In this document: piece by piece, positions 1-17,189 of the stretch
Numbering within the stretch: the first letter of the stretch is position 1
How the letters are laid out: each line of letters starts with the position of its first letter
Source of the DNA: Elsinoe ampelina
Taxonomy: Eukaryota
DNA length: 64,000 nt
Direction: 5' to 3'
Assembly (NCBI GenBank): GCA_010093995.1
Contig: ML992505.1
Span: forward strand, 808,273 to 872,272
Notes under the pieces: model-generated
Seen by the model: only the letters and a program-made list of their open reading frames with translations
Database searches by the model: none
Told to the model about the DNA's origin: nothing
Made by a program: the position numbers and the translations under genes

Positions 1-845
1 GACTTTCTCATTCAGCATCGGATGAATGGACAAACTTGCGAACGCCTGTGCTGTCCCTTGCGAGAAGCCAATGTACGAAAGCGACTTTTGCTTCGTGGCT
101 GACAGAACATAGTTGATACTGTCCGGGATGTCATGGAATGCGAATTGGTCGATGGAGAAATTCCAGAATTCTGTACTGGTTGGGTCGTACCTCGTGTGTT
201 TGCGACTGTATTTATTAGCTCTTTGATTACCGAGCTGTAGAGGGTCAGTGTTGTCCATATACAGTGTCGATCAGATCCCTTACCCAGACATCGTACCCCA
301 GCTCAACGAGGACGAAAGGCAGACACCTCTCTTCTTCGGTCAGGCACACCCAGACTTCGCTATTCATGAGAAGGCCATGGTGTAGGTACACCACCTTCTT
401 TTGAACGCTTCCCTCTCCGCAATTGACTCTCTGGTCCTCCTCACCCCGCCTGTATCCAAGTCTGTGAACTCCGAGGAGGTACCCATCCGAGGTGTGAACA
501 ATGTGCTCTTCCGCATAGTACCCGTACAGTCTCACGAGATCCGTAAAATCCGATGCCTTTGAAATAGGGGACGAAACAGCCCGCTTCTTATTCCTCGACC
601 TCCTCCCCTGGGGTGACGACAAGAGGTTGAAAAGCCGCCGGGACTGTTGATACAGAAATCGGATGACAGGATCCGGTAGAGCAAGAGTAATGATCCGTAT
701 AAAGCTCTCCAGTCCCACCAGTAAGAAACTTCCAAACAAGGCTAGATACTCATGGCTGCGAGTGACAATGGTCAGCATACCGACGGATTGAGAACCGGGC
801 CAGAACAAACAATTGAAGGCGCCCAATGAATGGCACTCGAGGCAT
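1..845 (-). CDS. AB-hydrolase lipase / sterol esterase (Tgl1/Yeh1-like), 3' end outside window
   Basis: ATG at 845 (MPRVPFIGRL), intron, then ORF 245-826 with EEHIVHTSDGYLLGVHR, LHHGLLMNSEVW and GYDVW; next exon LGNQRANKYS...YIGFSQG (GxSxG lipase motif near nt 55-75). Confidence 0.9.
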
Positions 846-1374
846 CTTAGTTTGATCCGAGAAGGTTGTTATTAGAGTCTGCTGCAGGGATAATTTGCGT
901 TTGTTGTGTGTGATGTTGAGCGCATCGCGTGCCCCCTAGCTAGCTCACAACAAAGACATTCGACAGCGGATCTGCTCGACAAGATGATACGAGTCTGTGT
1001 GACGAGTGCGGCGTGGCAATGCGACAGTCCAGACAATGTGGTATCTTCGAATGTTGTCGAGGTTTTCCTCGTGTCTCGTCTCAGTCAATGCACGCGACGT
1101 CATGGGTTTCTGGCATGTGAAGACCGAGGTCGGCGGGGCTAGATTTGTGGCGGCTCTGCGGGATAGTCCGGAGCTAAAAATTGAAGACCGACCAGGACGA
1201 GATCCTGGCTGAAGTAATTGGTGGAGGCAGATGGTCATTCATTCGATATTCTTCTTTCCAGGATCGCAAGAATATCGGCAGTGAGATCTGAAGACTCAGA
1301 AGGATGATCGCAAGGCGGTGACAGGTTTCTTAATCTCATCAACAACTCCAAGGCTACCCGGGCAGGCTTTGAAT

Positions 1375-1760
1375 ATGCCGTCGTCATGCAAGGACATCAG
1401 TAGGCGCAAACCGAGTAGACCTCTTGGGGAATTCCCTGACAGCTTGTAGGAGAGGCGCTTGCGTTATGTCTCCAGAACAGCGACTGCGTGATGGTCGAGC
1501 GAAATAAGCCCTCGGATTGTCTGCGACCACCTCTGGTCGATACCCTACCTACCCAGTGTCAGCAACTGAAGCGAGGATATGGTCAATGCAAGCGCGGCAT
1601 GGTAGACATGCGGAAACGCTTCAGAGGCAACAATCCGGTGTCGACGAGTGTCGAGCTCCAAGCAGGAGAGTCAAAGGGTCAGCTGTATGCAGGAGGAGCC
1701 GCTTTCCCAAAGATCAAAGGCACAGACGGCGACGAGAAGGAGCCTGAGGAGAAGGAATAG
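1375..1760 (+). CDS. PET191: Cytochrome c oxidase assembly factor Pet191/COA5 (twin-Cys IMS protein)
   Basis: Exon 1375-1399 MPSSCKDI, GT..CTGAC..AG intron 1400-1449, then REALALCLQNSDCVMVERNKPSDCL...QCQQLKRGYGQCKRGMVDMRKRFRGN, matching the family pattern. Confidence 0.92.
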
Positions 1761-1876
1761 AGGCGGACATCGAGAACGAATATACCCTGTAAAACAGCTG
1801 TATCATCACTTGGAAGAAAAGGGAAGCAGGAAACTTTTATGCATTCAGATCATGACCAGATCTTCATCTCAACTCA

Positions 1877-2758
1877 TCAGCATTTCCTGTCATTATACCA
1901 CCTCTCCCCATTCGGCCCCGTCATACCAAAGCTCGGGCTCATCCAGTAGTCACTCTCGACATACCAGAAGAGATGCACGCCCTTTAGTCTCTTACTGCAG
2001 ACCAGCTTCCGCCAAAACTTCCTTGCATTATCCACGCTCGCGACCGCCTTACCAGCAAAAGTCTCTCCCGACACAGGCCAACCAGTCTCGGTCACCCACA
2101 CCGGGATCCCCGCCTTGACAGCATTGGTGTGACTCCTAGTCCTCCTCAACGACCTCATGAAGACTTTCGCAGCACGCTGAATCGTGGCTCCTTCAAAGTA
2201 AGGGTACCCATCGAGACCAACAAAGTCACAAGCCGTGGTGACGACATCATTGACCGGGTCAACCCATGCAGTCCAGGTATCCACGTGCCCGACTGGTACA
2301 TTCACTCCTTGTGCCCGGATCATGCCTCGAACGTCGTAGATCTTCTGGGCGATGATGTTTGGGTCCGCCTCTTTTCTGTACAGGTCTTCTGAGCCGACGC
2401 TGACGGCGAGCATCCAGCTGCTCCCGTAGGCCTGGATGGCAGCGAGGAGGGCTTGCTTCTCGGCGTTGAAGTGATTGTCATCTTGTGTCCAGACACCGAC
2501 AAGGATTCTGGTCTTTGTGGCTAAAGCTGCGGGGACGGCGTTGGCGAGGGTGTTGCAGTCGCTGCTGGCGTAGAGGCGGGCAGTATTGAATGGACCTGGA
2601 GATGATCTCATTCGGTTGAAAGCATCTCTCCATTGATCGGTGGATTTGCAGGAGCCATCTGCGTTGTTTGCGGCAAAGTTGAAGCCTCGAAAGGCTGCTG
2701 TCGTAAAGGGGATGAAAGTGGTGAGAAGGGCAAGAATAATCGGCGTAAGGAGCTTCAT
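1877..2758 (-). CDS. Secreted GH17 beta-1,3-glucanase/glucanosyltransferase
   Basis: Signal peptide MKLLTPIILALL; motifs ARLY, VSVGSEDLYR, VGHVDTW, DGYPYF, VWVTETGWP. The ORF track extends to 2833, but the signal-peptide ATG is at 2758. Confidence 0.92.
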   Translation of the reverse strand: MKLLTPIILALLTTFIPFTTAAFRGFNFAANNADGSCKSTDQWRDAFNRMRSSPGPFNTARLYASSDCNTLANAVPAALATKTRILVGVWTQDDNHFNAEKQALLAAIQAYGSSWMLAVSVGSEDLYRKEADPNIIAQKIYDVRGMIRAQGVNVPVGHVDTWTAWVDPVNDVVTTACDFVGLDGYPYFEGATIQRAAKVFMRSLRRTRSHTNAVKAGIPVWVTETGWPVSGETFAGKAVASVDNARKFWRKLVCSKRLKGVHLFWYVESDYWMSPSFGMTGPNGERWYNDRKC

Positions 2759-4300
2759 TGTGATGGTCAGACTGTCGGTCGCTGTGTGCTCAACATAACT
2801 GGAAAAGTACAAGATATTATAAGACTCATGCAAGGTCTAAAGATAGGAGAGACACGTTATGCAATCGATACCATACCATGTCATATCAGCTATCTGATTG
2901 AAACATGCCCGCTGGACACGAGAAGCACCATCTTCTGTCCTACCTGCAGACTATCGGACGTGCCGTGTCGTACGCGTGAGGACGTTCTCGAAAAATCTTC
3001 CAGTTCCGGACTGGGCATACAACGGTCAGTAGGCTCAACCGCTTCGGGCGATGCTGAACGATCGTGTTGGGCAATGAGTGACAAATTGGGAACATGAGAT
3101 CTCGGCACAATGTACGAGAGATTGAGATGAACTATACCTGCTTGTTCCGGGAGAGATTTGGCAACGTTCTGTGATGGTAGCGGATGTGTTGATGATGAAA
3201 AGTGGAGCACAACACTCTGGTATCCTGCATGTTGCCCTGTTGACTGACAGACATCGTCGGCCTTTGTGAAGGCATGTCAATCAACAGAGAATCGCTCTCC
3301 GTGCCGCCAGAGATGTCTCGTCAACCAGCCTGTTGCTATTGATATCGGTATCAACAGAACCAGAGTCAAGGACATTCAAGGGCGTTCATACAACAATTCA
3401 TCGAATCCTGATCATCAGAGACATACGAGCCTTGATGCCTCAGAGACGATCGATATGCACCAAGTCGAGCCTCGATAAAGAGTGTCGTCGTGATGTCGAA
3501 CGGATCGATGATGGAAAACCAAAGGATGAGTTTGAAGCGGTACGCCCTGGTCATCATTATCATCAGTTCCAGACCAAACAACTTCCAGACCCTGATTGGC
3601 AATGACAATTATAGTGATCGAAGCATTTTAGAATGTTCTTTCAGGCGGCGCAGGCGGCCAAACCTGCTGAGTGGGTTCAAGGCTGTTCAGCCTCGTCTTC
3701 CGGCACCACGGCGGCAAGCGACACGCGCCGGTTTCATGTGGCAGCACCAACACACTCCCAACTTTAACAGCTGTAGATCAGTCCAGTCCAGGCGCTTGTT
3801 CATGCAGGTGATGCGGAATCACCGAGACCTCCCGGTCGACCTGAATATACAAATGAGGTGGTATCAAAGTGGAGCCTCGATGATGGGAATTCTCCTCGGG
3901 CAACACGACAAGGCCTTGTCAAGAGGATTCGCATCTCAGATCTGTATGTTACAGAGTCTCCAGCCACTCTCGGCGATGAAGATGTTGGCCTGACATCCGA
4001 GTCAATCACAGCCAGTGACCTATAACCGCGCTCCCAGCTTCAGCCTCATCCGCCTCGCTTGACCACGCAAAAGCCTAAGTTTGGTTCACATTACAGGTGA
4101 ACGCGTTTCACTACGAGGCAGGTGAGTGTACTCGTAGGGCTGCAACAGTCTGATGACTTCATACATAATTCACTCATCTCGATTGTCGATTCTTGCTCAT
4201 ACCAATCCCATAGTATTTGAACCCCAGTAAGAGACGTTTCCTTTGTTCGATTCTATCCCATCACTTTCTTTGAATACCATCAGTCATAGTGCCGGACACC

Positions 4301-4783: not shown

Positions 4784-5009
4784 AAGGCATACACATATAC
4801 CCATTGCGTGCTTATTGTAGAACTACCAGGCGGAGTCGGAGTTGGGCATTTTCATGTATTATACTAGTCGATGTATATTAAATACGAGTAACGGCTGTTG
4901 CATCATACTTTTCTCTTGATAAACCCCGTTCTGATCCACTTCTGTAGTATATCGCGATTGTGTAGACATTCAGAAAGAGGAGTCATCGATTTGTGAGAAA
5001 ATATTGCTA

Positions 5010-5143
5010 TTCTCCTTTGCAAAAGGGTTGGGATTTGCTTGGCAAATTTGCTTGTCAACGTCAGCTAAAACGACCAACTTCAGCCTAAATAGCTAATAAC
5101 TCACTAATCTATTAAAAATTGAAGCTGAAAAAAGGTGTAACAG
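5010..5143 (+). repeat. Left terminal inverted repeat (39-bp core, degenerate extension, inner 25-bp block 5119-5143)
   Basis: TTCTCCTTTGCAAAAGGGTTGGGATTTGCTTGGCAAATT is the reverse complement of 15522-15560; TTGAAGCTGAAAAAAGGTGTAACAG matches 15428-15452 with 2 RIP-type changes. Confidence 0.93.
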
Positions 5144-5480
5144 TGAAGTTAGTGCTTCCGGATTAAGTAATAAAATAATTAACCAATTCGTAGCTAAATT
5201 ACTAGTGTTAGTATTACTATTATAATGCCTTAAACATGCCTTATTTTATTGCCCTATTACGTTAACTACATCTATAAGCTCTTCCTCTCTAGTATAAGTA
5301 CTAATAACATTACTAACCTTACTAAAGGCCTCTTAAGGTTAAGATCTTACTACTTAAAGGCTAATTAGCTTACCTTTAGCTATATTAAGTATCTAAAGGT
5401 ATTAAAGAAGAGAGGGCAGCTACTACTATTACTACTCGAGGTGTTACTAGATATATAAAGGCTATTCGAGGAGAAGTTAG

Positions 5481-5943
5481 TGTTACGAACTGTCTAAACA
5501 TAGTCTACGCTAGTAGTCTAAGCTAAGCTAAGAACAAGAGAGTTCTACTTCTATAGTAGTATAGTACTAAGGTAAGAGTTAGAGAAGGTATATCTTATAG
5601 ATAATAAAGTACAATTAGATAGTATTACAAAGGCTAGCCTTAGCAATACTAGTGTTTACTATCTAGATAAGGTTAACTATAGTACTTATATAAGGTAAGG
5701 ACTATTCCTATATATATATATTCTCCCTTGTGTTCTTTATATACTCTACATACTCTATAGCGAGAGTTAAGAGCAATATAGAGTACACGTCCGCTAGTAA
5801 CCTACGCGCTCTATAGTTTTAGAAGTAGAGCTACTAGAGAAGATAGAGAACTAGGTAAATATTAGGCTAGGTTATATAATAATCTCGGTAGCTTAATTAG
5901 TCCTAATATCTCTACGTTCTAGCTGTCCTACTAGTTCGTAACA
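5481..5943 (-). repeat. 3' LTR
   Basis: TGTTACGAAC...GTTCGTAACA ends (TG..CA, 10-bp inverted termini); colinear with 12032-12494. Confidence 0.96.
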
Positions 5944-5946
5944 TTA

Positions 5947-5958
5947 CTCTTCTCCTTT
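5947..5958 (-). promoter_or_regulatory. Polypurine tract of the LTR element
   Basis: AAAGGAGAAGAG on the minus strand, 3 nt before the 3' LTR. Confidence 0.8.
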
Positions 5959-6017
5959 AATTAAGTTGTTCTAACGAGTAAGTATTCTTTCTTGTCTTTA
6001 CGCGCTATATACTAAAT

Positions 6018-6570
6018 ATACCTTCTAGTTATTAAAGGCATAGCAAATCTAGTATATCTATACGAAAGAATCTCTCTAAGTTTATTAAACTATTCGGAAC
6101 TAATATGCTATAGGCTTGTTCTTATTACAAATCGAAGGGGCTAGACTATAAGGTCTATATTTAGTCGAGTATCTATAGCTAGTATATTATAAGTAACTAC
6201 TTAAGTTATAATATTTAAGTAACAAAATTAGAATAGTAGCGTCTTTAGTCTAAGTATATTCGTTTACGAAAGGAATTAGTTATAGCTAAGGCTACTAGAA
6301 GGGAAGCTAAAGAAGCTTATAAAAAGACAAAAGAGGCTTATTAAAGAGCTATAGGTAATAAGCTTCGCCTACGCGAAGAGATATAAAAGTTAAAGGACAA
6401 GGCAAAGAAAGTAATCTCTTTAGAGAAGACTCGTATTTAAGTCCTAGAGTAGGAGGAAATACTATTATTAGTAGATCCTATCCTACTATAGAATTAGTAG
6501 TTATTTATACCTAACTCCGATTAGAGTTTCTTATTTAGTAATAATTAGAGCACTTCTATTAGTTAAGTAG
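6018..6570 (+). pseudogene. Antisense ORF relic in the retrotransposon: Zn2Cys6-like cluster plus coiled coil
   Basis: In one frame, TGT/TAC/TAT codons at 6117, 6126, 6147, 6174, 6183 and 6207 give C-x2-C-x6-C-x8-C-x2-C-x7-C after G/A reversion, followed by a K/E/R/A-rich helix. Start and end are approximate. Confidence 0.7.
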
Positions 6571-9500
6571 TTTTCCTTAGGCATTCTCGTTTTTGTTTAG
6601 TGTTAGTAGCTTTAGGTCTACCTAGTTAGTTTACTTAGGATAGGTTTTTAGTTTAATAATCTAGAATTGCTTACGAGGTAAAGTGTTTCTCTAGTTCCTA
6701 TATTACCTTACTATACTAATGTCCTTTCTAGTAAATAAGATAGTAGCGTTTTCCTTTTATAAGTTTATAACGTAAAACCCTTTCTATCTTATACTATAGC
6801 TTCTATGTTTCTTTATCTAGTTCGATAGGTCTAGGTATAGTATTCTATAGTGCTTTCTCTAGTAGTAATATATAAAAGACTAGATAGATCCTTATATATC
6901 TTAGTAGTTCTAGTTTGTATACGTTCTTGTTTTTCTTTTCTAGAATCTTAAAGAGTTCTAGTTTAGTGTAGTTAAGTTTTTTACTCGGTTGTTTCGTTTT
7001 AATATTTTTACTAAGGAGGTAAACTTTCTCTCTCTCCTATAGAATTAGTCTCGCAATTTTCTTCTAGTTAGTAAACTCTACTATTCTTTATAATATAAAT
7101 ACTATATTATAGTATAGCTAGTTATATAGTTTCTTAATATTAGCTACTAGTATATTAGTATCCTCAGATACTAGCTTAATTCTAAGTATATCGTAGTATA
7201 GATCCGGGTATATTCTATAGTTTATATAGAATAGTAAAATTCTATTTGCTAACTTTCTATTATTAATAGCGAGCTCTACGAGCAGTAATAGCGTCGCCTA
7301 TAAGTCTTACTTATAGTTTAGGTAGCATTATAGGTACTACTCTAGTACTTGATTTGCTATTTAGTTTGTCCGTCCGTTTATAGGTAAAAGGAGATTAATA
7401 GCTTATATTTAACTCCTAGTAGGTCTATAAATAATTGCTAGAATTGTAATATAAATAGCTTATCTCTATTAGTTATTAGGTCTCGTAGTACTCTATGTTA
7501 TAAAACAATTATTTAGAGAAAGATAAAGGCTATATCCTCGATAGTTACTATTATCTTATATAGTATAAAGTAGTAATACTTCGTAAATCTATCTACTAGG
7601 ACTAGAATACTATTGTACTTTATACCTATAAGAGGTTCTTCTAATAGCGGTAGAGGTCCTATAAAGTCTATTATAACTAATTACTATAGTTTATCTAGTG
7701 GTAGTAAGAGTTATAGTAGGCTATATAGTTTATATCGAGAGTATTTAGACTTATAGCACATATCGCATGTAGTAATATACGTCTTAATATCGTTTTAGAG
7801 TCCTTTCTAGAGGTAGTTTTATATAATGAGTTTAATAGTCTTATTAATCCTACTATGTCCTATAGTTAGGTTATTATAGTATATTTAAATAACTTCTTTT
7901 TTCTATTCTTACGTAAGCTCCTAGGTAAGGCTATATAACTACTCTACCTTCGAGTACTTATAGACTAGAGCGCCGTCTTACTACTTTAGTATAGAGGCCT
8001 CTATTATTGTTATATTTTTTAAGTAATTCGGCCGGCAGCTAAGAGTATCTACTTCGCCGTTCTCTAATCCCTTAATATAGTAGATCTAGAAGTTATAGCT
8101 TGTAAGTGTTTCTAACTATCAAATCTGTCGTCTATTAAGAACCTTAGTTATTGTCTAATATAGGAGGTTCTTATAGTTAGTGTAGACTTATATAGGTAAG
8201 GTTGTCTCTTCTAGGTATACTCTCTATTTGTAGAACGCTTTTATAATTATAAGTAATTCCTTGTTATATATATCATAGTTAAGTTTAGGTCTAGTTATTT
8301 CTCGTAAGTAGTATATAATCGAGTAGTATTATCCTTCTACGTTCTTCTATGCTAAATACGCTTCTATTGCAAAGTCCGAGGCATTTGTTTCTAGTAGTGC
8401 TTATTAGTCTAGGTCGAAGAGTGCTAGAATAGGTGCTATTATAAGCCTAAGCTTTAGCTCCTTAAAGGCCTACCTATATCTCTTATTAAAGATAAAGCTA
8501 GTTTCCTTTTTCGTAAGGTTAGATATTAGCGTAGCTACCTTAGAGAATCCTTTAATAAACTTATAGTAGTAGTTAAAGAACTCTAGTAGCGCTTAAACCT
8601 CCTTAACTGTCGTAGGTTCCGGCTAGTTATTTACTAACTTAATCTTCTTCGGATTAGGTTCGATACTATTAGTAGATATAACATAGTCTAGAAATTATAT
8701 CTTATACTTATAGAACTTACACTTAGAGAGTTTTACTAGTAGGTCTTTCTCTTTTAGTTTCTATAGCACTTTATAAATATGTCCTATATATTTGTTATAC
8801 ATCTTTAAGAAGATAATAATATTGTCTAAATATGCTAAGATAAAGTTATTAAGGTATTCTTATAGAGTATTATTAATTAACTCTTAGAAAGTTATAGGAG
8901 TATTAGTTAACCTAAAGGGTATAACAAGGTACTTATATAGACTCTATTATGTTCTAAAAGCTATTTTCTACTTCTTGCTCTCCTTTATTTATACTTAATA
9001 ATAAACGTCTTTAATGTTAATTACAGTGAACTATTTAGCTCTAAGAAGTTAGTTTTAAAGTTTATCGATCCTTAGTAGGGGATAGCGATTCTTCCTAGTA
9101 AGTGTATTAAGTTTCTAGTAATTAATATATATTTATAACGTCCTATTCTTCTTTAGTATAAAAAGCACTCCGTGCGCAATAGGTAATTTTAATAGTTATA
9201 TAAATCCTTTAAGTAAGTACTTATCGATATAGTTCTTAAGAATATTCTCCTCTTGTTTCGATAGTAGTATAAAACCTTAATAGTATATTAGGGATTTACC
9301 TTCTTTAAAAGGTATTTCGTAATTCTATAGTTTATATTAGAGTAAGGCTACGATGCCTTTTCTTTCTTTAAATAAGTTCTTAAAGTCTTTATATTCTAGC
9401 GGAAGTGCTTAATTACTTACGCTAGCGATAGCTCTAACTATTAGTTGTACCTATACTATTCTTGCAGTTAGTATCTATAGAGCTAATTATACTCTCTATG

Positions 9501-9936
9501 TCCTATAATTACACTTAGGGAATTCGAGTGTTTCTTTAATCTAGTCTACGTCTAGATTATGTTATTAAAGCTAGTCTATACTAAGTACTATATTATACTA
9601 TATATTAACTATATCGATCGATCGTTTTTCTATATATGTCCTAATTCTAATTATAATGTTTCGTAGTTCCTAAGTAACTTTCTCGTCCTTCCCTATAGAG
9701 GTTCTATTCGCTATAGTAAGTAGGTAAGGTAACTCCTTCTAATATTAATAAGGTTTAAGCTAATTAGTAACTGTTATAGAGACATAGCTATAGTTAGCTC
9801 TTAAATTTATTATTGCTCTTACCTTATTTCCTTATATCTAGACTTCTAGTATAAAGTAATTTAACATATAGATCTTTATTATATTAAGGCTTTAGCTAGT
9901 GTTATTATCTTGCCTCCTTAGGCGACAACTAGCTAG
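6563..9936 (-). pseudogene. pol relic (protease, RT, RNase H, integrase, chromodomain)
   Basis: RIPed motifs: AIINLRA (=AMIDSGA, ~9800); YKYLVIPFRLTNTP and AYLDNIII (RT, ~8815-8940); LETNASDFAI (RH, ~8370-8395); TDGQT (IN, ~7365, 1-bp deletion just after); YLIY*KGH...*ELEKH (chromodomain, ~6680-6745). Confidence 0.93.
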
Positions 9937-11915
9937 TTTTTTGTCATTGTAGCGCCTTAGATAAGTAGTTAATCCCTTCCCGCACATATCTATTATTAGT
10001 ACTATATCTACTAGGCAAGTTGTGTTTTGTTACTATTTAATATAGCGAGGTAAACTTCTAGCGCCTAAGTCCCTTAATAACTATAAAGTCTAATAATTCT
10101 CTATTAGTTATACTAAGTAGTAGTATACACTTATATTAGTATAACTATTTCCTCCGGGTATAGCTAGGTATTAGCATTAAAGACGAAAGTAAGTTAAGTA
10201 GATTCGTCTTGTTATGTTCTATTCTAGTAATAGATATATATTATTATATAGTTTCTCTATATTTCTATAAGGTATACTTTAAGTCGTCTACCTAGTAGTA
10301 GTATATTATTGTTATTATTAGATAAATTGTTATCTATATTATTATATTATAGTTGTTCGGCGTATTCTTTATTATATTTCTCTTTATCGCTACTGCCTCT
10401 AGTATAGTTATAGTTAGTAAAGCTACACTAAGTATATTCCTATACTTAGCTATAGGGAATAGTACTATCTATTTCGATTACTAAGAAGTCCGTAGTGTAT
10501 TTAAGACTAATAGCCTCTTCTCTAAGTACATCGTATAAGTAAATAGTATAGTACTATTTACAATCTAGATTTATGCATTTCTAGAGCGATATATAATATA
10601 CCTTTCCTTATAGTTCGCTATAAGAGCTAAAGGTAAGGCTACTATATTATCGTGTAGCACTTGCGTCCTAATACTTCGTCTCGATAATCGTATATTAGTA
10701 ATTGTTACTAACTACCTTCTAAGGTTAGTTAATGTTACTACTAATTATAGAGAGCCTTTCTAGGTTAAGCCCCTAGTCTAGCTATTTTGTTAGTTACTTA
10801 CGCTTAGATAGCTTATATAGGAACTAACTAGATCCTCGCTTGTCTAATAAGTAAATATAATAAGAGTTATTATAATATACTATCTATAATAGCGTTATAT
10901 ATTAGCTTTGTTATTTGCTATTAGTCGTAGAGATATTAAGCATAACATCTAGAGAGAATTCTATTACCTCTCGAGTTGTTATAGATCTCTTCTATATTTC
11001 CTTACCTACGCTAAAGATCGTTAGATCTTCTATAGTAGTGTTAGCCTTTTTCTCTACTAGCTCGGCAACTATTATATATAATTCATTAGCTAGCGCCCCT
11101 TATTAGTAGTCCCTAGCCCGATACTTAGGTCTTTTACACTTAAAACATAGATTGTCTTATCTATACTTCTCTCTCTCTTTTCTACTAAGGAACTTTCCTC
11201 TATAGCTATAGCCTTATACCTATAAGGGGCAGCCTTCGTATATAGTATTAAGTTCTATAGAGTCTCTATAGTTTCGGGAGGAACGTATATATCTAGTGTT
11301 TGCCTTATATCCTCTACGACGTTCTATATGTCGTTTATAGAGTCTATTATCGATAGCAATTATAGTATCTACTAGTTCCTAAAGACTATCGGGCAGCTTA
11401 GGTATTATTTAGTCTTTAACTAAGTCGCTTAGTCCTTAGTAGAATGCTAAGTGTTTAGCACTATCGTCCTAGTCTAGGTATATTACGAGTTATTAGAACT
11501 AGAAATAGTACTAGGCTATAGACCTACGTTGTTATAATTGTTAAATCTTCGTCGCGGCGATACGTTCCTTATTAGATACGTTAAAGACTTACTTAATCTT
11601 TGCCTAGAAGATGCTAAAGCTCTTAAAGATAGCCTTTATATCTAGGCCTAGTTATCTATCTAGGTAGCTACTTATATAAGGCTTAAACTACCTAAAGGTA
11701 GCGCCTTTAAGGTGTATTCCGGCATAGAGGACCTTTGCTACGTCGTTAGCGTACTTATCTCCTTCTAGAGCGAAGAAGGCTTTAAGTTAAACAAGAAAGC
11801 GCCTTAAGTAGGCGCAGTCCCCGTAGAAGAGTTCTACCTCTAACTTAGGCCTACTTCGTCCTTCTATACTAAAAGACCTTCTATGTTCGCCCGAGATTAA
11901 ACTAGTAGTAGACAT
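9933..11915 (-). pseudogene. gag relic (~660 codons) ending at an AAAAAAC-TAG -1 frameshift site
   Basis: ATG 11915; LFYGD..LRRFLV..KVLYAG.HLKGA.F.WF capsid pattern; CFKCKRP.(H)RARD(C) knuckle at ~11107-11148; the same frame runs to A AAA AAC TAG at 9942-9933, and pol continues in the -1 frame. Confidence 0.88.
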
Positions 11916-12031
11916 GTCGTTAATAGTAAGCTTTCCTAGCTTACTAGCGATTAAAGATACTAATAGTAACTTAGAGCGAGAGTTACTTATTAACCTTATA
12001 GTATGCTATACTATAGTAAGGGTAGTTAAAA

Positions 12032-12494
12032 TATTACGAACTGTCTAAACATAGTCTACGCTAGTAGTCTAAGCTAAGCTAAGAACGAGAGAGTTTTACT
12101 TCTATAGTAGTATAGCACTAAGGTAAGAGTTAGAGAAGGTATATCTTATAGATAATAAAGTACAATTAGATAGTATTATAAAGGCTAGCCTTAGCAATAC
12201 TAGTGTTCGCTATCTAAACGAGGTTAACTATAGTACTTATATAAGGTAAAGACTATTCCTATATATATATATTCTCCCTTATGTTCTCTATATACTCTAT
12301 GTACTCTATAGCGAGAGTCGAGAGTAATATAGAGTACACGTCCGCTAGTAACCTACGCGCTCTATAGTTTTAGGGGCAGAGCCGCTAGAGAAGATAGAGA
12401 ACTAAGTAAATGTCGAGCTAGGTTACGTAATAATCTTAATAGCTTAATTAGTCCTAACGTCCCTATATTCTAGCTGTCCTACTAGTTCGTAATA
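12032..12494 (-). repeat. 5' LTR
   Basis: 463 bp with termini RIPed to TA..TA; ~39 differences from the other LTR by manual count, all transitions, no indels. Confidence 0.96.
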
Positions 12495-13349
12495 GTTAGA
12501 TATATACTTAGAGGAGCTATAGAATCATTTAGAGTCCTATTAGTCAATTACTATATTAATTAGTACTATCTCTAGAGGGCTAAAAAAGTTAAATTATATA
12601 TATAAGGTATTAAGTCGTACTACTAGCTAGAGGGATAAGGTACTCTATACTAAGTACTATAAAGAGATAGAGGCGTTTACTGCCGACTAGCTTATATATA
12701 TTAATAAGACTATAGTTAATAAGAAGACTCTATAGCGCTACTCTAGCTAGTTACTAAAGAGGTTACTAGCTATAGATCGCTTAGTAAGGAAGATAAGCAA
12801 GCGCTAGTTAGTACTTCTAGCGCTTACTATTAATAGATATCTCTATAGCATAAAGGTGTTTTAAGGCTTAATTATAGCTATAATATTTAAGTACTAGCTT
12901 TAAGAGGAGGTACTACTATAGTACTTACCTTATCTAGGCCTATAGTTAGTATTAGTGTTAGATAATTGTTAAATTTACTAGAGGAAGGTACGTAAAGAGT
13001 TTACTATCGCTGCTACTAGCTACTTAGCTAATTACGTTAGGTAGTAATTAACCTCTATTAATAGTATAGTATTTTAGTACAATTCTTACCTAGCTATTTA
13101 CTAGATTATAATCTAATTAAGCCTAGCTTCTATGTATTAAAGCAGTATATATAGCGTAATAGAAAAGAAACGCTATAGCTTAATATAGAGAAATACTAGC
13201 GTTAGTTTAAGGTGTTTATCTACGAGTCCTATAAGGACTTTTAGAGTAGTATTAACTTTAGAGCACTATTTAAAAACTATAGATATAGGCTTAAATAAAG
13301 TCACCTATCTATTGCTATTAATCTACTATAATTGTATACTACGCTTAGA

Positions 13350-15100
13350 TTACTCCTCCTCGTCGGATAATACTATACTAGGTATCTACTAAATAAAGAG
13401 GCTAAGGTACTACTTTACCTTTACCCTAATACTATAAGGAGGAATTATTCTCTCTAGCATCTTATTACTTAATTACAAGAGCAATTTAAGGTCCTAGTAA
13501 TCTATAATAAGCTACTAAGTAGCGTTATAAAGAGGTACCTTAAAGTAAGAGTAGCGCTATATAAGAGAGTTAAAAAAGCAAGTAATATATTAAGGGTCTT
13601 TAGCCTTAAAAGAGAGTAAGCTTAACTAGAGGATTTTATAATTGCTATTACTCGTTGTTAGTATAGAAGGGAGTTAAGGAGTAGTTAGAAGAGCTAAGGG
13701 TAACTCTAGATAAGGTACTAAAGGCTAGCTACTATTATAGAAGTACTAGTTAAAGATAGAGGTAGAAGGAGGCCTATAAGGAGAAGAGTTAGATTTACCT
13801 TATTGCCTCTTGTATTACTTATACTTAGCTAACTACTTATTCTTATAAGCCTTAGTAGTAGCAGTAATAAAATTAATAATATAGACTAATAGCCTACTAG
13901 TAGTAGACTAGTCTATAGTAGTATTACGCTACTATTCGTTAATAATATTAGTATCGATAGTATAGTAAGTGCTACTAATAACGATATATACTACCTTATC
14001 TATATTTAGACACCGGCTAGTTTTACACTAGTAAAACTCCTTAATATTACACTAAAACTACTTATAGAATATCTTCTTAGCCTACGTATTTAATGCTAAT
14101 AGTCCTCGTAGTATATCGTGGTCTAGTTATTATAGTATAGCTTAGAGGAGGTAGGTAGTAGTACCTCGAATTGTATAAGGATTAGTAGTATTAGCTAGTA
14201 CTAAGATATCTCCCTCGATAGAGATACTCTACTCTAAGGAGAACCTCCTCTATTAATCGTTAACGTATAGTTATAGCTTCTTCTTCTTTAAACTATAGTA
14301 GTGCCTTATAAGGTCGACGACCTTATACTATAGTAGTCCTAGCACCTTAAAGTTATCTATAGAGTTAACGGGATTACCCTTTATAGAGGTAATAAAGAGC
14401 TTAGCCTTCTAAGAGAGAGAGTAGTATTATAGGCCTTACGTATAAGTAAATAGATAGATAGTAGTAGCTGCCTTATTATAGATACTACTAATACTACTAT
14501 TAACATTATAAAGCTTATTAAATTGCTTAAGCTTCTTACTATTAAAGTAAATAGTCTATACTAAGACGAACTAGACATTTAGAGGAGGTATTAGTAATTA
14601 CTAAGTCTAAGAGTTAGTAGAAGGACTTAGCAACTTTTATTAATAGTAACAGCGAGGTAGTTTTAACTTAGATTAACTCTATTACCTCCTTAATACTTAA
14701 GAGGCACCCTATAATGCTTCTCTACTAGTTGCCTTATTATCTAGTTACTCTTATATAGCTATTACTAAATTAGAAAGGGAAGGGAATATTAGTTAAGAGA
14801 TATACCTACTTAGTGCTAATATTATAGTACTCTAGTATATAACTCTTTAACTTTTTTAGAGAGGTTACTTAGCTTATAATTTAACCTCTTTAATCTCTTT
14901 AACTTTACCTCCTTCTTCTTTAATAACTATAGGTCGACTTTAGTACTTATACTTTCTCTAAATACTTCTCCTAGCTAGAGCCTCTAGATTAAGGTTCTTT
15001 AGAGACTTACTAGTATTTATATATACTATTCTTCTTACTAGCGCTTCTCTATTACTATCTCTATTAGCTTATAAAGTTTAAAGGCTAGCAAATTTAACAT
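13350..15100 (-). pseudogene. Second (accessory/cargo) gene of the Tc1-like transposon, ~567 aa, unknown function
   Basis: ATG 15100; putative 47-nt intron 14805-14759 (GTATAT..CTAAT..TAG); one frame to ...LSDEEE-TAA at 13352-13350. Internal stops are TAA/TAG, explicable as RIPed CAA/CAG/TGG codons. Confidence 0.7.
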
Positions 15101-15269
15101 AGTATAAGGATTAAGCCTAGGCTAATTAAGGGAGAGAGTTAATAATCTTATAGTCTCCTTCTAACATTAGTATAGCTAAGAGTTCTAAAAGGTTACTATA
15201 TTAAGGAGAGTATCTAGCATTTAATCTATCTTTATTAACTAGCTCTTTATTATGCTTAATAGACTAAGG

Positions 15270-15301
15270 GGGGGTATCGACAAGAGGGGGTATCGACAAG
15301 A
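15270..15301 (+). repeat. Tandem 16-bp direct repeat GGGGGTATCGACAAGA x2
   Basis: Two perfect copies flanked by G-runs, between the ORF2 start and the right TIR. Confidence 0.9.
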
Positions 15302-15427
15302 GGGGGGGAGCTTAGAGGTATATTAAAGGCGCTAGAGTCGAAGTTCTCTATCTTAGCAATTATCTAGTTAATTTGTATACAAGTTGGATCGATTAGATTA
15401 AACGATATATAATTTAGCTCGGCAGAG

Positions 15428-15560
15428 CTATTACACCTTTTTTTAGCTTCAAAAACGACGAATTAGGCAATTAATGGTAAGATGGGTGAGAATTGGTCAA
15501 TTTGGTGGTGGTTTACACGCTAATTTGCCAAGCAAATCCCAGCCCTTTTGCAAAGGAGAA
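15428..15560 (-). repeat. Right terminal inverted repeat
   Basis: AATTTGCCAAGCAAATCCCAGCCCTTTTGCAAAGGAGAA (15522-15560) followed by TA; inner block 15428-15452. Confidence 0.93.
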
Positions 15561-15710
15561 TAGCGATTAGTCAGCTTCGAGGTCCGGCTCTGTAGATTTT
15601 TGATAGACATTCAATTTCTAAGCACGTCGTATAAAGTGTCTGTCAGCCCCATACAGCACTTTCACATCATCAAAAACGTCAGAAAATCATAGAAAATCAC
15701 AACGATTCCA

Positions 15711-17189
15711 ATGTCGTCGAGCAATCCCGACCGCGAAGGTCAAGAGGACCCTCAGGATGACAACGAAATGCTCGATGTAGCGGACGCCGATGAAATCTTG
15801 GAAGAAGAGGGCGATGTAGCCATGGACTCTGGAGACGAGGGAGGAGAGCCTTTAGAAGAGATCGCACTTCAAAACGACAGCGTAGCACACTTTGACTCGC
15901 ACAATGACAGTATATTCTGCATAGCACAACACCCAACCAATCCCTCATTAGTCGCCACAGGAGGCGGCGACGACACAGCATACCTCTGGGAAGCCGTTCC
16001 AGCACCACGTCCCGTCCTCCCCAAATCCTTCGAGACCAATCCCCAACCAGTAGAACGCCAATCCCTCCAAACCCTCGCCAAACTCTCCAACCACGCCGAC
16101 TCCGTCAACGCCATCACCTTCTCCCTCCCCGACGGCGCCTACCTCATCACCGCCGGTCTCGACGGCCGCATCAACATCCACGACACCAAATCTCACACCC
16201 TCCTCACCACCGCCCAAGAAGTCGAAGAAATCAATTGGCTCTCCCCGTCCCCCCACCCCTCCCACCCCAACACCTTCGCCCTCGGCGCCTCCGACGGCTC
16301 CATCTGGGTCTACACCATCGACCCCACCTCCTCTACCCCCCTCACCATCCTCCAAGCGTACTACCTCCACACCGGCCCCAGCACAGCCGGCACCTGGACG
16401 CCCGACGGCCGGCTGCTAGCCACAGTCTCGGAGGACTCCTCACTATACGTATGGGATCCTTTCTCCGAAGCCGCCGACGCAGGCCTCGTCGACGCCTCCA
16501 GCTCCACACAGACCGTCGTGGCGCTCACGGCGTCGGACGAGCGTTTCCGCGTCGACGGAGGGCTGTACAGCGTCGCCGTCTCCCCGGGCGGGGCCATCGT
16601 CGCGGTGGGCGGCGCAGAGGGACAGATCCGCGTGGTGGGCCTGCCGAGGTTCGGCGCGGGGGGTGCGTCGACATCGAAAGGTGGAGCGGGGGCAAAGGCC
16701 AAATCCGGGGGCGGGAAGCAAGCTGCTTCCAAGGCGGGGAGTGTCGCTGCTGGTCAGGCAGGTGTGATCCTCGCGGCGCTGGGGGCGCAGAGTGATGGCG
16801 TGGAAACGCTGGATTTCTCTCAGCCTCCGCTTACGTTGTTGGCGGCGGGGAGTGTGGATGGGACGATTGCGTTGTTTGATGTGGCGCATAATTTTGCTGT
16901 TAGGAGGGTGATTAAGGAGGCGCATGAGGAGGAGGCGGTGATTAAGGTTGAGTTTGTAAAGGAGGAGAGGGGATGGTTGTTGACTAGTGCCGGGAATGAT
17001 GGGGTGGTGAGGAGATGGGATGTGAGAGGAGGGACGGCGGCTGCGGGGCAAGGGTTTGCGGGGGAGTGGAGGGGGCATAGAGGGGGTGGGGAGGGAGGGG
17101 GGATTTTGGGGTTTGTGCAGGCAAGGGATGGGAAGCAGGTCGTGACGGCGGGGGATGATGGGGTGGCGCTGGTGTTCGAGACGGTGTAG
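15711..17189 (+). CDS. SQT1: WD40 ribosome-assembly chaperone Sqt1/AAMP
   Basis: Acidic N-terminus, then NDSVAHFDSHNDSIFCIAQHP..ATGGGDD and multiple WD repeats, ending VVTAGDDGVALVF. Confidence 0.88.
   Translation: MSSSNPDREGQEDPQDDNEMLDVADADEILEEEGDVAMDSGDEGGEPLEEIALQNDSVAHFDSHNDSIFCIAQHPTNPSLVATGGGDDTAYLWEAVPAPRPVLPKSFETNPQPVERQSLQTLAKLSNHADSVNAITFSLPDGAYLITAGLDGRINIHDTKSHTLLTTAQEVEEINWLSPSPHPSHPNTFALGASDGSIWVYTIDPTSSTPLTILQAYYLHTGPSTAGTWTPDGRLLATVSEDSSLYVWDPFSEAADAGLVDASSSTQTVVALTASDERFRVDGGLYSVAVSPGGAIVAVGGAEGQIRVVGLPRFGAGGASTSKGGAGAKAKSGGGKQAASKAGSVAAGQAGVILAALGAQSDGVETLDFSQPPLTLLAAGSVDGTIALFDVAHNFAVRRVIKEAHEEEAVIKVEFVKEERGWLLTSAGNDGVVRRWDVRGGTAAAGQGFAGEWRGHRGGGEGGGILGFVQARDGKQVVTAGDDGVALVFETV

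Follow-up and report, generated by a model that had tools for sequence, protein, structure and literature searches.

Tc1/mariner elements are the textbook minimal transposons and the basis of widely used gene-transfer tools. In the canonical form, one transposase gene lies between two inverted repeats, and fungal Tc1-like elements measure 1.3–2 kb. PIF/Harbinger elements combine a DDE transposase with a Myb/SANT-like DNA-binding protein that is required for transposition. Here, we analyze a stretch of 64,000 nucleotides from Elsinoe ampelina (assembly GCA_010093995.1, contig ML992505.1, positions 808,273 to 872,272 of the forward strand; hereafter, the window) in which a second gene, open reading frame 2 (ORF2), lies inside terminal inverted repeats (TIRs), tail-to-tail with a Tc1-like transposase. 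We put the chances at about even that this locus represents one copy, destroyed by repeat-induced point mutation (RIP), of a multi-copy two-gene Tc1-like transposon whose ORF2 would encode an accessory protein, a reading drawn from sequence comparison.

The simple single-gene architecture of Tc1/mariner is stated in excerpts of PMC5751038 and PMC7325037, and impala of Fusarium oxysporum figures as a representative fungal Tc1 element in excerpts of PMC9977792 and PMC4054914. Like impala-type elements (DD34E, DDE_3), the window element has a TIR-bounded cut-and-paste organization, an LPxYxxDxNxIE-like stretch, a candidate D-86-D and D-34-E spacing (the latter with an inferred intron), and the RIP degradation common to many fungal copies. 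Unlike them, it is ~3.5 kb long, carries a second, convergent gene of ~600 codons, and has long TIRs of ~140 nt with an unclean TA duplication. Single-gene architecture, which is canonical and not strictly defining, is therefore absent, the second gene occupying 13350–15167 on the minus strand. The termini also differ, reading TYGCTATTC as opposed to the CAGT of Tc1 implied by the abstract of PMC4054914. The full-text literature (supplements, Repbase, and Dfam lying outside the scope of the search) yielded no fungal Tc1/mariner element with a second conserved gene.

Two other systems come close in layout. The window element resembles PIF/Harbinger in being a two-gene TIR element with a non-catalytic second protein as a possible cofactor. 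In contrast to PIF/Harbinger, its only transposase signal is DDE_3, and its flanks read ATA and TTA, without a clean TWA duplication. No Pfam match to DDE_4, Plant_tran, or Myb/SANT was found at E ≤ 10 in any frame, RIP lowering the sensitivity of this search, or in P0003 and P0004, the two annotated homologues of ORF2 in Elsinoe fawcettii. We reject a PIF/Harbinger identity on account of the wrong transposase motif and the lack of a Myb match. The ciliate TBE and Tec elements, multi-ORF members of the Tc1/mariner superfamily according to an excerpt of PMC7325037, likewise combine a DD34E transposase with extra ORFs, of which one is encoded on the complementary strand. That excerpt describes one extra ORF as a zinc-finger protein, another as having no known function, and a third as a site-specific recombinase, in elements from a different kingdom with ~700-bp TIRs, a description that sets these ORFs apart from ORF2.

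Architecture of the Element

The features of the element, in window coordinates, are as follows.

5004–5143, plus strand: left TIR, with weaker similarity inward to ~5143
5225–5480, plus strand: transposase part 1, with ATG at 5225–5227, interrupted by a long terminal repeat (LTR) retrotransposon
12500–12987, plus strand: transposase part 2, with candidate catalytic D codons AAT 12703 (RIP-changed GAT) and GAT 12961
12988–13040, plus strand: putative transposase intron of 53 nt (GTACGT...CTAAT...TAG), inferred from sequence
13041–13244, plus strand: last part of the transposase, with the LPxYxxDxNxIE-like stretch and a candidate stop, TAG 13242–13244
13350–15167, minus strand: ORF2, ~605 codons from ATG 15167 to TAA 13352–13350, convergent with the transposase
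13380–13595, minus strand: ORF2 C-terminal SAM-like helical domain followed by an acidic tail (predicted fold)
13962–14054, minus strand: ORF2 motif F-W...W-x-C-x4-C-P-N-x4-C...H, conserved in the homologues
15428–15567, minus strand: right TIR, from inverted-repeat comparison

The element coincides with the only AT-rich block in the window (~5000–15500; 29–37% GC versus ~52% elsewhere). Its inverted terminal arms, 5003–5108 and 15462–15567, span 106 nt at 75% complementarity, and a second pair, 5119–5143 and 15428–15452, spans 25 nt at 92%. A terminal pattern of 32 nt is found at two places in the 64-kb window and nowhere else in it, with 0 occurrences expected by chance, and when both element ends are aligned, the outer ~60 nt are almost identical and similarity is gone by ~150 nt. 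Terminal inverted repeats of the kind expected of Tc1/mariner, resembling TYGCTATTCTCCTTTGCAAAAGGG, are present. Without the nested retrotransposon, the element (window 5004–15567) amounts to 477 + 3068 nt, or ~3.5 kb, as the first-pass annotation of this DNA had estimated.

The transposase frame is continuous across the excised retrotransposon, with G5480 and AT12500–12501 joining into GAT. The candidate catalytic E is AAG 13119, read as a RIP-changed GAG. GAT 12961 and AAG 13119 are separated by 158 nt and do not share a frame; with the putative intron excised, they come to lie in one frame with exactly 34 residues in between, which yields a D-86-D, D-34-E spacing in which two of the three codons are read as RIP-changed. 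The putative intron is of the spliceosomal type and sits between the second D and E of the catalytic triad. TAG 13242–13244 is the likely stop, since it is kept in a contig from a related organism (organism B, described below) in which neighboring sites are unmutated. Measured from this stop, the end of ORF2 is ~105 bp away, compared with the earlier figure of ~50 bp.

Several points weaken the assignment of the element to the Tc1 group. The DD34E spacing depends on the inferred intron between the second D and E. The sole transposase family matched in Pfam, DDE_3, was reached with a RIP-damaged query at E values of 0.14 and 0.049, corresponding to 12–14 bits against a Pfam cut-off of 28.6 and covering profile positions 105–138 of 146 (106–137 at E 0.049). 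A comparison of the transposase parts with Protein Data Bank (PDB) sequences found no relative. At the target site, TA 5002–5003 immediately precedes the left end, while on the right, TA 15568–15569 follows one extra T, and the TA duplication is not clean. A word-indexed protein search with the RIPed transposase also gave no match. Tc1-like membership is, on this sequence evidence, probable and not proven, because the TA duplication is unclean and the family match is below threshold.

The present copy is dead: C>T/G>A changes pervade both genes, and the LTR retrotransposon has cut the transposase in two. Damage is equally heavy in both genes, as had been noted in the first pass, with TpA/ApT and (CpA+TpG)/(ApC+GpT) indices of 2.25 and 0.16 in the ORF2 part and 2.06 and 0.18 in the transposase part, compared with 0.48 and 1.26 in host DNA. 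Differences between copies in sequencing run X1 comprise 179 A>G, 131 T>C, 101 G>A, and 85 C>T versus 54 transversions. These indices, together with a predominance of transitions between copies, are those of a RIP-mutated repeat. Among 40 difference rows listed, nine adjacent position pairs have TA in the window and CG in other copies, all within 13546–14951 (e.g., 13546/47, 13930/31, 14007/08, and 14599/600). These pairs indicate that mutation converted CpG to TpA on both strands and not just CpA to TpA. Such double changes account for the many TAA and TAG stops that derive from the Arg codons CGA and CGG, and a translation in which stops are read as Gln is a poor query for the same reason.

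ORF2 Is a Protein-Coding Gene

The first-pass annotation described a continuous minus-strand frame with one putative intron. The coding frame is real and yet far from continuous, being broken by 62 stops (31 TAA and 31 TAG) in 607 codons. Homology indicates that it once encoded a protein. A phmmer search with the read-through translation against 1,835,955,588 representative proteins returned two at E ≤ 0.001, both annotated as “hypothetical protein” in Elsinoe fawcettii: P0003 (KAF4547057.1, 433 amino acids), with an E value of 3.3e-51 over query residues 44–448 (405 residues), and P0004 (KAF4547024.1, 670 amino acids), with an E value of 2.8e-06 over query residues 232–576. Each is the lone member of its 90% cluster and comes from one contig, of 38 or 24 kb. 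In the reverse direction, tblastn of P0003 has a single match, 14585–13794 on the minus strand, at E 7e-39. ORF2, P0003, and P0004 can be aligned colinearly throughout one frame, and none of the gaps is as large as an intron, so the proposed intron is not needed.

The relationship becomes clearer when RIP is considered. As read, 121 of 431 codons (28%) equal P0003, and the count rises to 259 of 431 (60%) when codons reachable by reversing C>T/G>A changes are included, against 18% (maximum 25%) in a shuffled-pair control. For P0004, equal or RIP-reachable codons number 206 of 542 (38%). With at most 60% and 38% of codons reconcilable, P0003 and P0004 are other members of the family and not the same element. 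They share with ORF2 the same block order and Cys/His motif, and P0004 also shares the tail; unlike the RIP-broken ORF2, both have intact open frames. Between themselves, they have only 27% identity over 303 residues, with motifs and open frames kept.

Coding signal and other copies point the same way. Three-base periodicity over the ORF2 segment is significant (chi2 33.2, p 1e-5), and a RIP-aware codon model built from host codon usage ranks the ORF2 frame first in 5/5 non-overlapping 450-nt windows (13102–15351) and in 12/14 overlapping ones. Letters from other copies are listed for 24 ORF2 codons, 789 further differences lying beyond this listing. Five of these 24 are stops in the window; four are Arg (CGA/CGG) in other copies, and the fifth is TGA in other copies and Arg in both P0003 and P0004. 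Residues equal to P0003 or P0004 number 11/24 in the other copies versus 6/24 in the window.

Two of the frame tests are imperfect. The stop count of the ORF2 frame, 59 in 579 codons, is no better than that of three others (52, 53, and 57), and the codon model, which had no shuffle control, also gives this phase a high score across the transposase, where it is the antisense partner. We conclude that ORF2 is a genuine protein-coding gene despite its stop counts, given the phmmer and tblastn homology, the frame signal, and the codons of other copies.

Other searches were negative. A word-indexed protein search with the RIPed ORF2 gave no match, one with a P0003 + P0004 profile returned only P0004 itself, and RIP-aware decoding of ORF2 altered few residues and revealed no family. 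The ORF2-family profile had 460 pattern matches in metagenome contigs, 95 in viral contigs, and 99 in prokaryote genome contigs, of which 0 were confirmed in each set, and the TIR pattern had 0 matches in metagenome contigs.

ORF2 Travels with the Transposase

Logan contigs from four sequencing runs were matched to window positions 12300–15900 at ≥80% likeness, giving 701 contig pieces in X1 (organism A), 376 in X3 and 236 in X4 (both organism B), and 29 in X5. In X1, summed contig depth, which is not the same as copy number, is ~770–3300 across every bin of 12542–15566, compared with 232 in the unique flank; in X3 and X4, it is ~18–144, compared with 3–5. Depth does not change abruptly at the transposase/ORF2 boundary, and it is similar over the two parts in all four runs. 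Contigs of other copies span 13198–13401 and 13377–13751, and a 2302-nt X1 contig, from another organism-A copy, is colinear from 13393 to beyond 15385. No repeat pairs, TIRs, or LTR ends were found that bound the 2-kb ORF2 segment.

Equal RIP, similar depth, spanning contigs, and the lack of bounding repeats together argue that ORF2 travels with the transposase, and the comparison supports the co-mobility of the two in at least two related organisms. The placement of ORF2 inside the repeated unit, proposed earlier from RIP alone, is borne out by multi-copy depth over 12542–15566 in two organisms, and no internal ends were found that would mark the segment as a separate insertion. The linkage is seen in only one element family and two related organisms.

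Domain Organization of the ORF2 Protein

ORF2 belongs to an undescribed family. Pfam searches with the ORF2 translation, P0003, and P0004 found no family, and the RIPed ORF2 gave only sub-threshold matches at chance level (DUF6679, E 0.027; TPR_TmcB in another frame, E 0.022). Similarly, the ORF2 profile found nothing among PDB sequences besides one row at E 1.1. With no Pfam entry and two annotated relatives among 1.84 billion representative proteins, ORF2 defines a new protein family, with a predicted SAM-like module.

The protein can be divided into five regions. Charged residues and low complexity mark the N-terminal third, which contains basic runs. The first reading of the sequence had placed a coiled coil here, which finds no backing in AlphaFold2 (AF2), where the N-terminal region of full-length P0004 is modelled without helices at very low confidence (mean predicted local distance difference test score, pLDDT, 35.7 over the whole protein). 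Next comes a conserved middle block, corresponding to P0004 residues 240–350. Of the motif proposed in the first-pass annotation, both Cys codons are intact as TGT (14025–27 and 14010–12), and the homologues retain C-x4-C-P-N together with a third Cys and a His. In the window, the Pro codon is CTA (14007–09), which is CCG (Pro) in other copies and restores C-x4-C-P-N, while the third Cys and the His both read TAT (13986–88 and 13962–64, respectively) and are Cys and His in homologues. Past the His, the motif continues as ...W-R-x-D...P-S. This Cys-x4-Cys-Pro-Asn...Cys...His arrangement is probably a small zinc-binding module. A Ser/Pro/Gln-rich linker then leads to the C-terminal domain, made up of the last ~70 residues, and the C-terminal tail aligns with that of P0004.

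For this last region, AF2 was run on the last 101 residues of P0004 together with the window row, which gave a mean pLDDT of 76 (core ~87–90) and a predicted template-modelling score of 0.63. In the predicted model, five helices pack into a compact bundle that can be superposed on solved SAM domains. In a VIA-align search of 48,161 chains, the SAM domain of tankyrase-1 ranks best (Z 9.2, root-mean-square deviation 1.4 Å, 62/63 residues), and the top 50 are mostly SAM domains. Whole SAM domains such as those of CNK2, Ste50, BICC1, and Scm superpose as well, with Z 7–8.5 for many others; by contrast, identity in the structural alignments is 10–22%, and SAM_1 and SAM_2 are not matched. The combined AlphaFold and Foldseek check that had been suggested came out mixed, SAM domains standing on top with Foldseek E values above 1.

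Set against a SAM assignment are the two-row alignment from which the model was built, the caution of the alignment tool itself that a Z of 9 for a small helical domain can mean a common arrangement, Foldseek rows that are led by SAM domains and all have E ≥ 1.2, and the lack of a match to SAM_1 (PF00536) or SAM_2 (PF07647) at E ≤ 1 for P0003 and P0004. Neither family was matched by the window translations at E ≤ 10, and in the ESM Atlas, SAM clusters appear only at 0.76–0.80, the level of a lead. A predicted complex of two copies of P0004 575–660 scored 0.00, an outcome that leaves self-association neither favored nor disfavored. Support for the SAM-like tail is at the level of a predicted fold and not of family membership.

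Possible Role of ORF2 and Alternative Explanations

In the reading that we favor, ORF2 would be a transposon-encoded accessory protein. Its Cys/His module may bind DNA or chromatin, and its SAM-like domain, if correctly modelled, may mediate self-association and oligomerization or recruit a partner. By analogy with the Myb-like protein of PIF/Harbinger, ORF2 might help the transposase find or pair the element ends, or it might regulate the transposase. An accessory role is favored by the compact layout, the presence of the gene in two organisms, and the retention of motifs and open frames at 27% identity.

The main rival is that a host or foreign gene was captured by a Tc1-like element and is copied along without any role in transposition, as cargo that may be neutral or beneficial to the host or to itself. 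We consider this possible, if somewhat unlikely. No mechanistic link ties ORF2 to transposition, and canonical Tc1/mariner elements require the transposase alone. Moreover, the sole relatives are annotated as ordinary E. fawcettii hypothetical proteins, and fungal clusters without Pfam assignment at 0.90–0.91 in the ESM Atlas are a lead to a family wider than the transposon. On the other hand, ORF2 takes up nearly all the space from the transposase to the right TIR, an arrangement that is both compact and convergent, and it is found in copies of two organisms; motifs and open frames have survived between homologues of low identity, whereas transposon passengers usually decay. A weaker objection is that a host gene of a multiply sequenced species should have near-identical cluster members, and the homologues stand alone.

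A stronger version of the accessory-protein reading, which we find doubtful, would make this an old, obligate two-component lineage of fungal Tc1/mariner, in which a zinc-knuckle and SAM protein co-evolves with the transposase and is needed for transposition. ORF2 might then, for example, polymerize on subterminal DNA and thereby pair the ends or target insertion, which would give Tc1/mariner an equivalent of the Myb-like cofactor of Harbinger. Such a lineage would have been overlooked to date since RIP and repeat masking conceal ORF2 from annotation.

It is very unlikely that the locus is a composite, with the 2-kb ORF2 segment forming a separate repeat, another mobile element or part of one, nested in or beside the Tc1-like element in an ancestor shared by these copies. 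Nesting is common locally, as the LTR retrotransposon inside the transposase illustrates; the X1 interior depth has its minimum at 13268–13388, and the contigs are short and bridge the transposase and ORF2 mostly piecewise, which also tempers the case for co-mobility. Against this, no inverted or direct terminal repeats surround the segment, and the best internal pairs (25–29 nt, 70–76% complementary) are at the AT-rich background level. Both parts have similar depth in each of the four runs, the junction region (13198–13401 and 13377–13751) is spanned by contigs of other copies, no well-supported loose end falls at the segment borders among the 24 listed (87 further loose ends exist), and ORF2 shows no recognizable transposase or integrase family. 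A separate nested insertion was rejected for want of ends and given equal depth across both parts.

Finally, a chance reading of AT-rich, RIPed DNA that was never a gene, to which the shared stop counts and the empty word-based searches might have pointed, is excluded by the phmmer match over 405 residues (E 3.3e-51), the tblastn match (E 7e-39), the RIP-corrected identity of 60% versus 18% for shuffled pairs, and the sense codons restored in other copies.

If a lineage stably carries a second conserved gene, Tc1/mariner transposition may be able to depend on a cofactor, and such dependence, if true, matters for the host range and regulation of these elements and for the design of tools. If the passenger explanation holds instead, Tc1/mariner elements may be able to ferry cargo genes between fungal genomes. 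Either way, the ORF2 family is a new family with a SAM-like module, as modelled, awaiting functional placement, and RIP-dead genes prove recoverable through sensitive search.

Nested Retrotransposon and Flanking Regions

Additional features of the locus are as follows.

5481–12494, minus strand: nested Ty3/Gypsy LTR retrotransposon, a later insertion outside the DNA transposon proper
5481–5943 and 12032–12494: LTRs of the retrotransposon, 463 nt each, TG..CA
5476–5480 and 12495–12499: target-site duplication of the retrotransposon, GTTAG (5 bp)
15266–15297: two tandem copies of the 16-bp unit AAGRGGGGGTATCGAC, between the ORF2 start and the right TIR

Read through its stops on the minus strand, the retrotransposon matches the Pfam families RT_RNaseH_2 (4.9e-19), RVT_1 (2.9e-16), Integrase_H2C2 (2.8e-10), Retrotrans_gag (7.2e-8), and SH3_Tf2-1 (2.5e-6), and it is RIPed as heavily as its host element. 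Other copies of the DNA transposon are without it, as organism-B contigs fuse 5447–5473 directly to 12497 onwards, with loose ends at 12494 and 12496. The LTR bin 12300–12420 has a summed contig depth of 103,192 in run X1, compared with 232 in the unique flank, and a depth of 0 in three organism-B runs. In one organism, the retrotransposon family seems to have been amplified enormously, and in the other, it seems to be missing or too divergent, as far as contig matches can tell.

The GC content returns to the host level within ~100 bp of the element end. Two organism-B contigs, 917 and 754 nt long, show ~90% likeness to the right flank from 15563 and 15580 onward, and their remaining 708 and 434 nt fall outside the compared stretch 12300–15900. 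This suggests an empty site, in which case organism B may lack the insertion at this locus, judging from the right flank only. A host open frame of 498 codons (15693–17189, plus strand) starts ~130–140 bp past the right TIR, which places the transposon within the upstream region of a host gene. Inside the element, the tandem unit AAGRGGGGGTATCGAC is G-rich, lies upstream of the ORF2 start in the right subterminal region, and is spared by RIP; it could be a candidate protein-binding site or promoter element.

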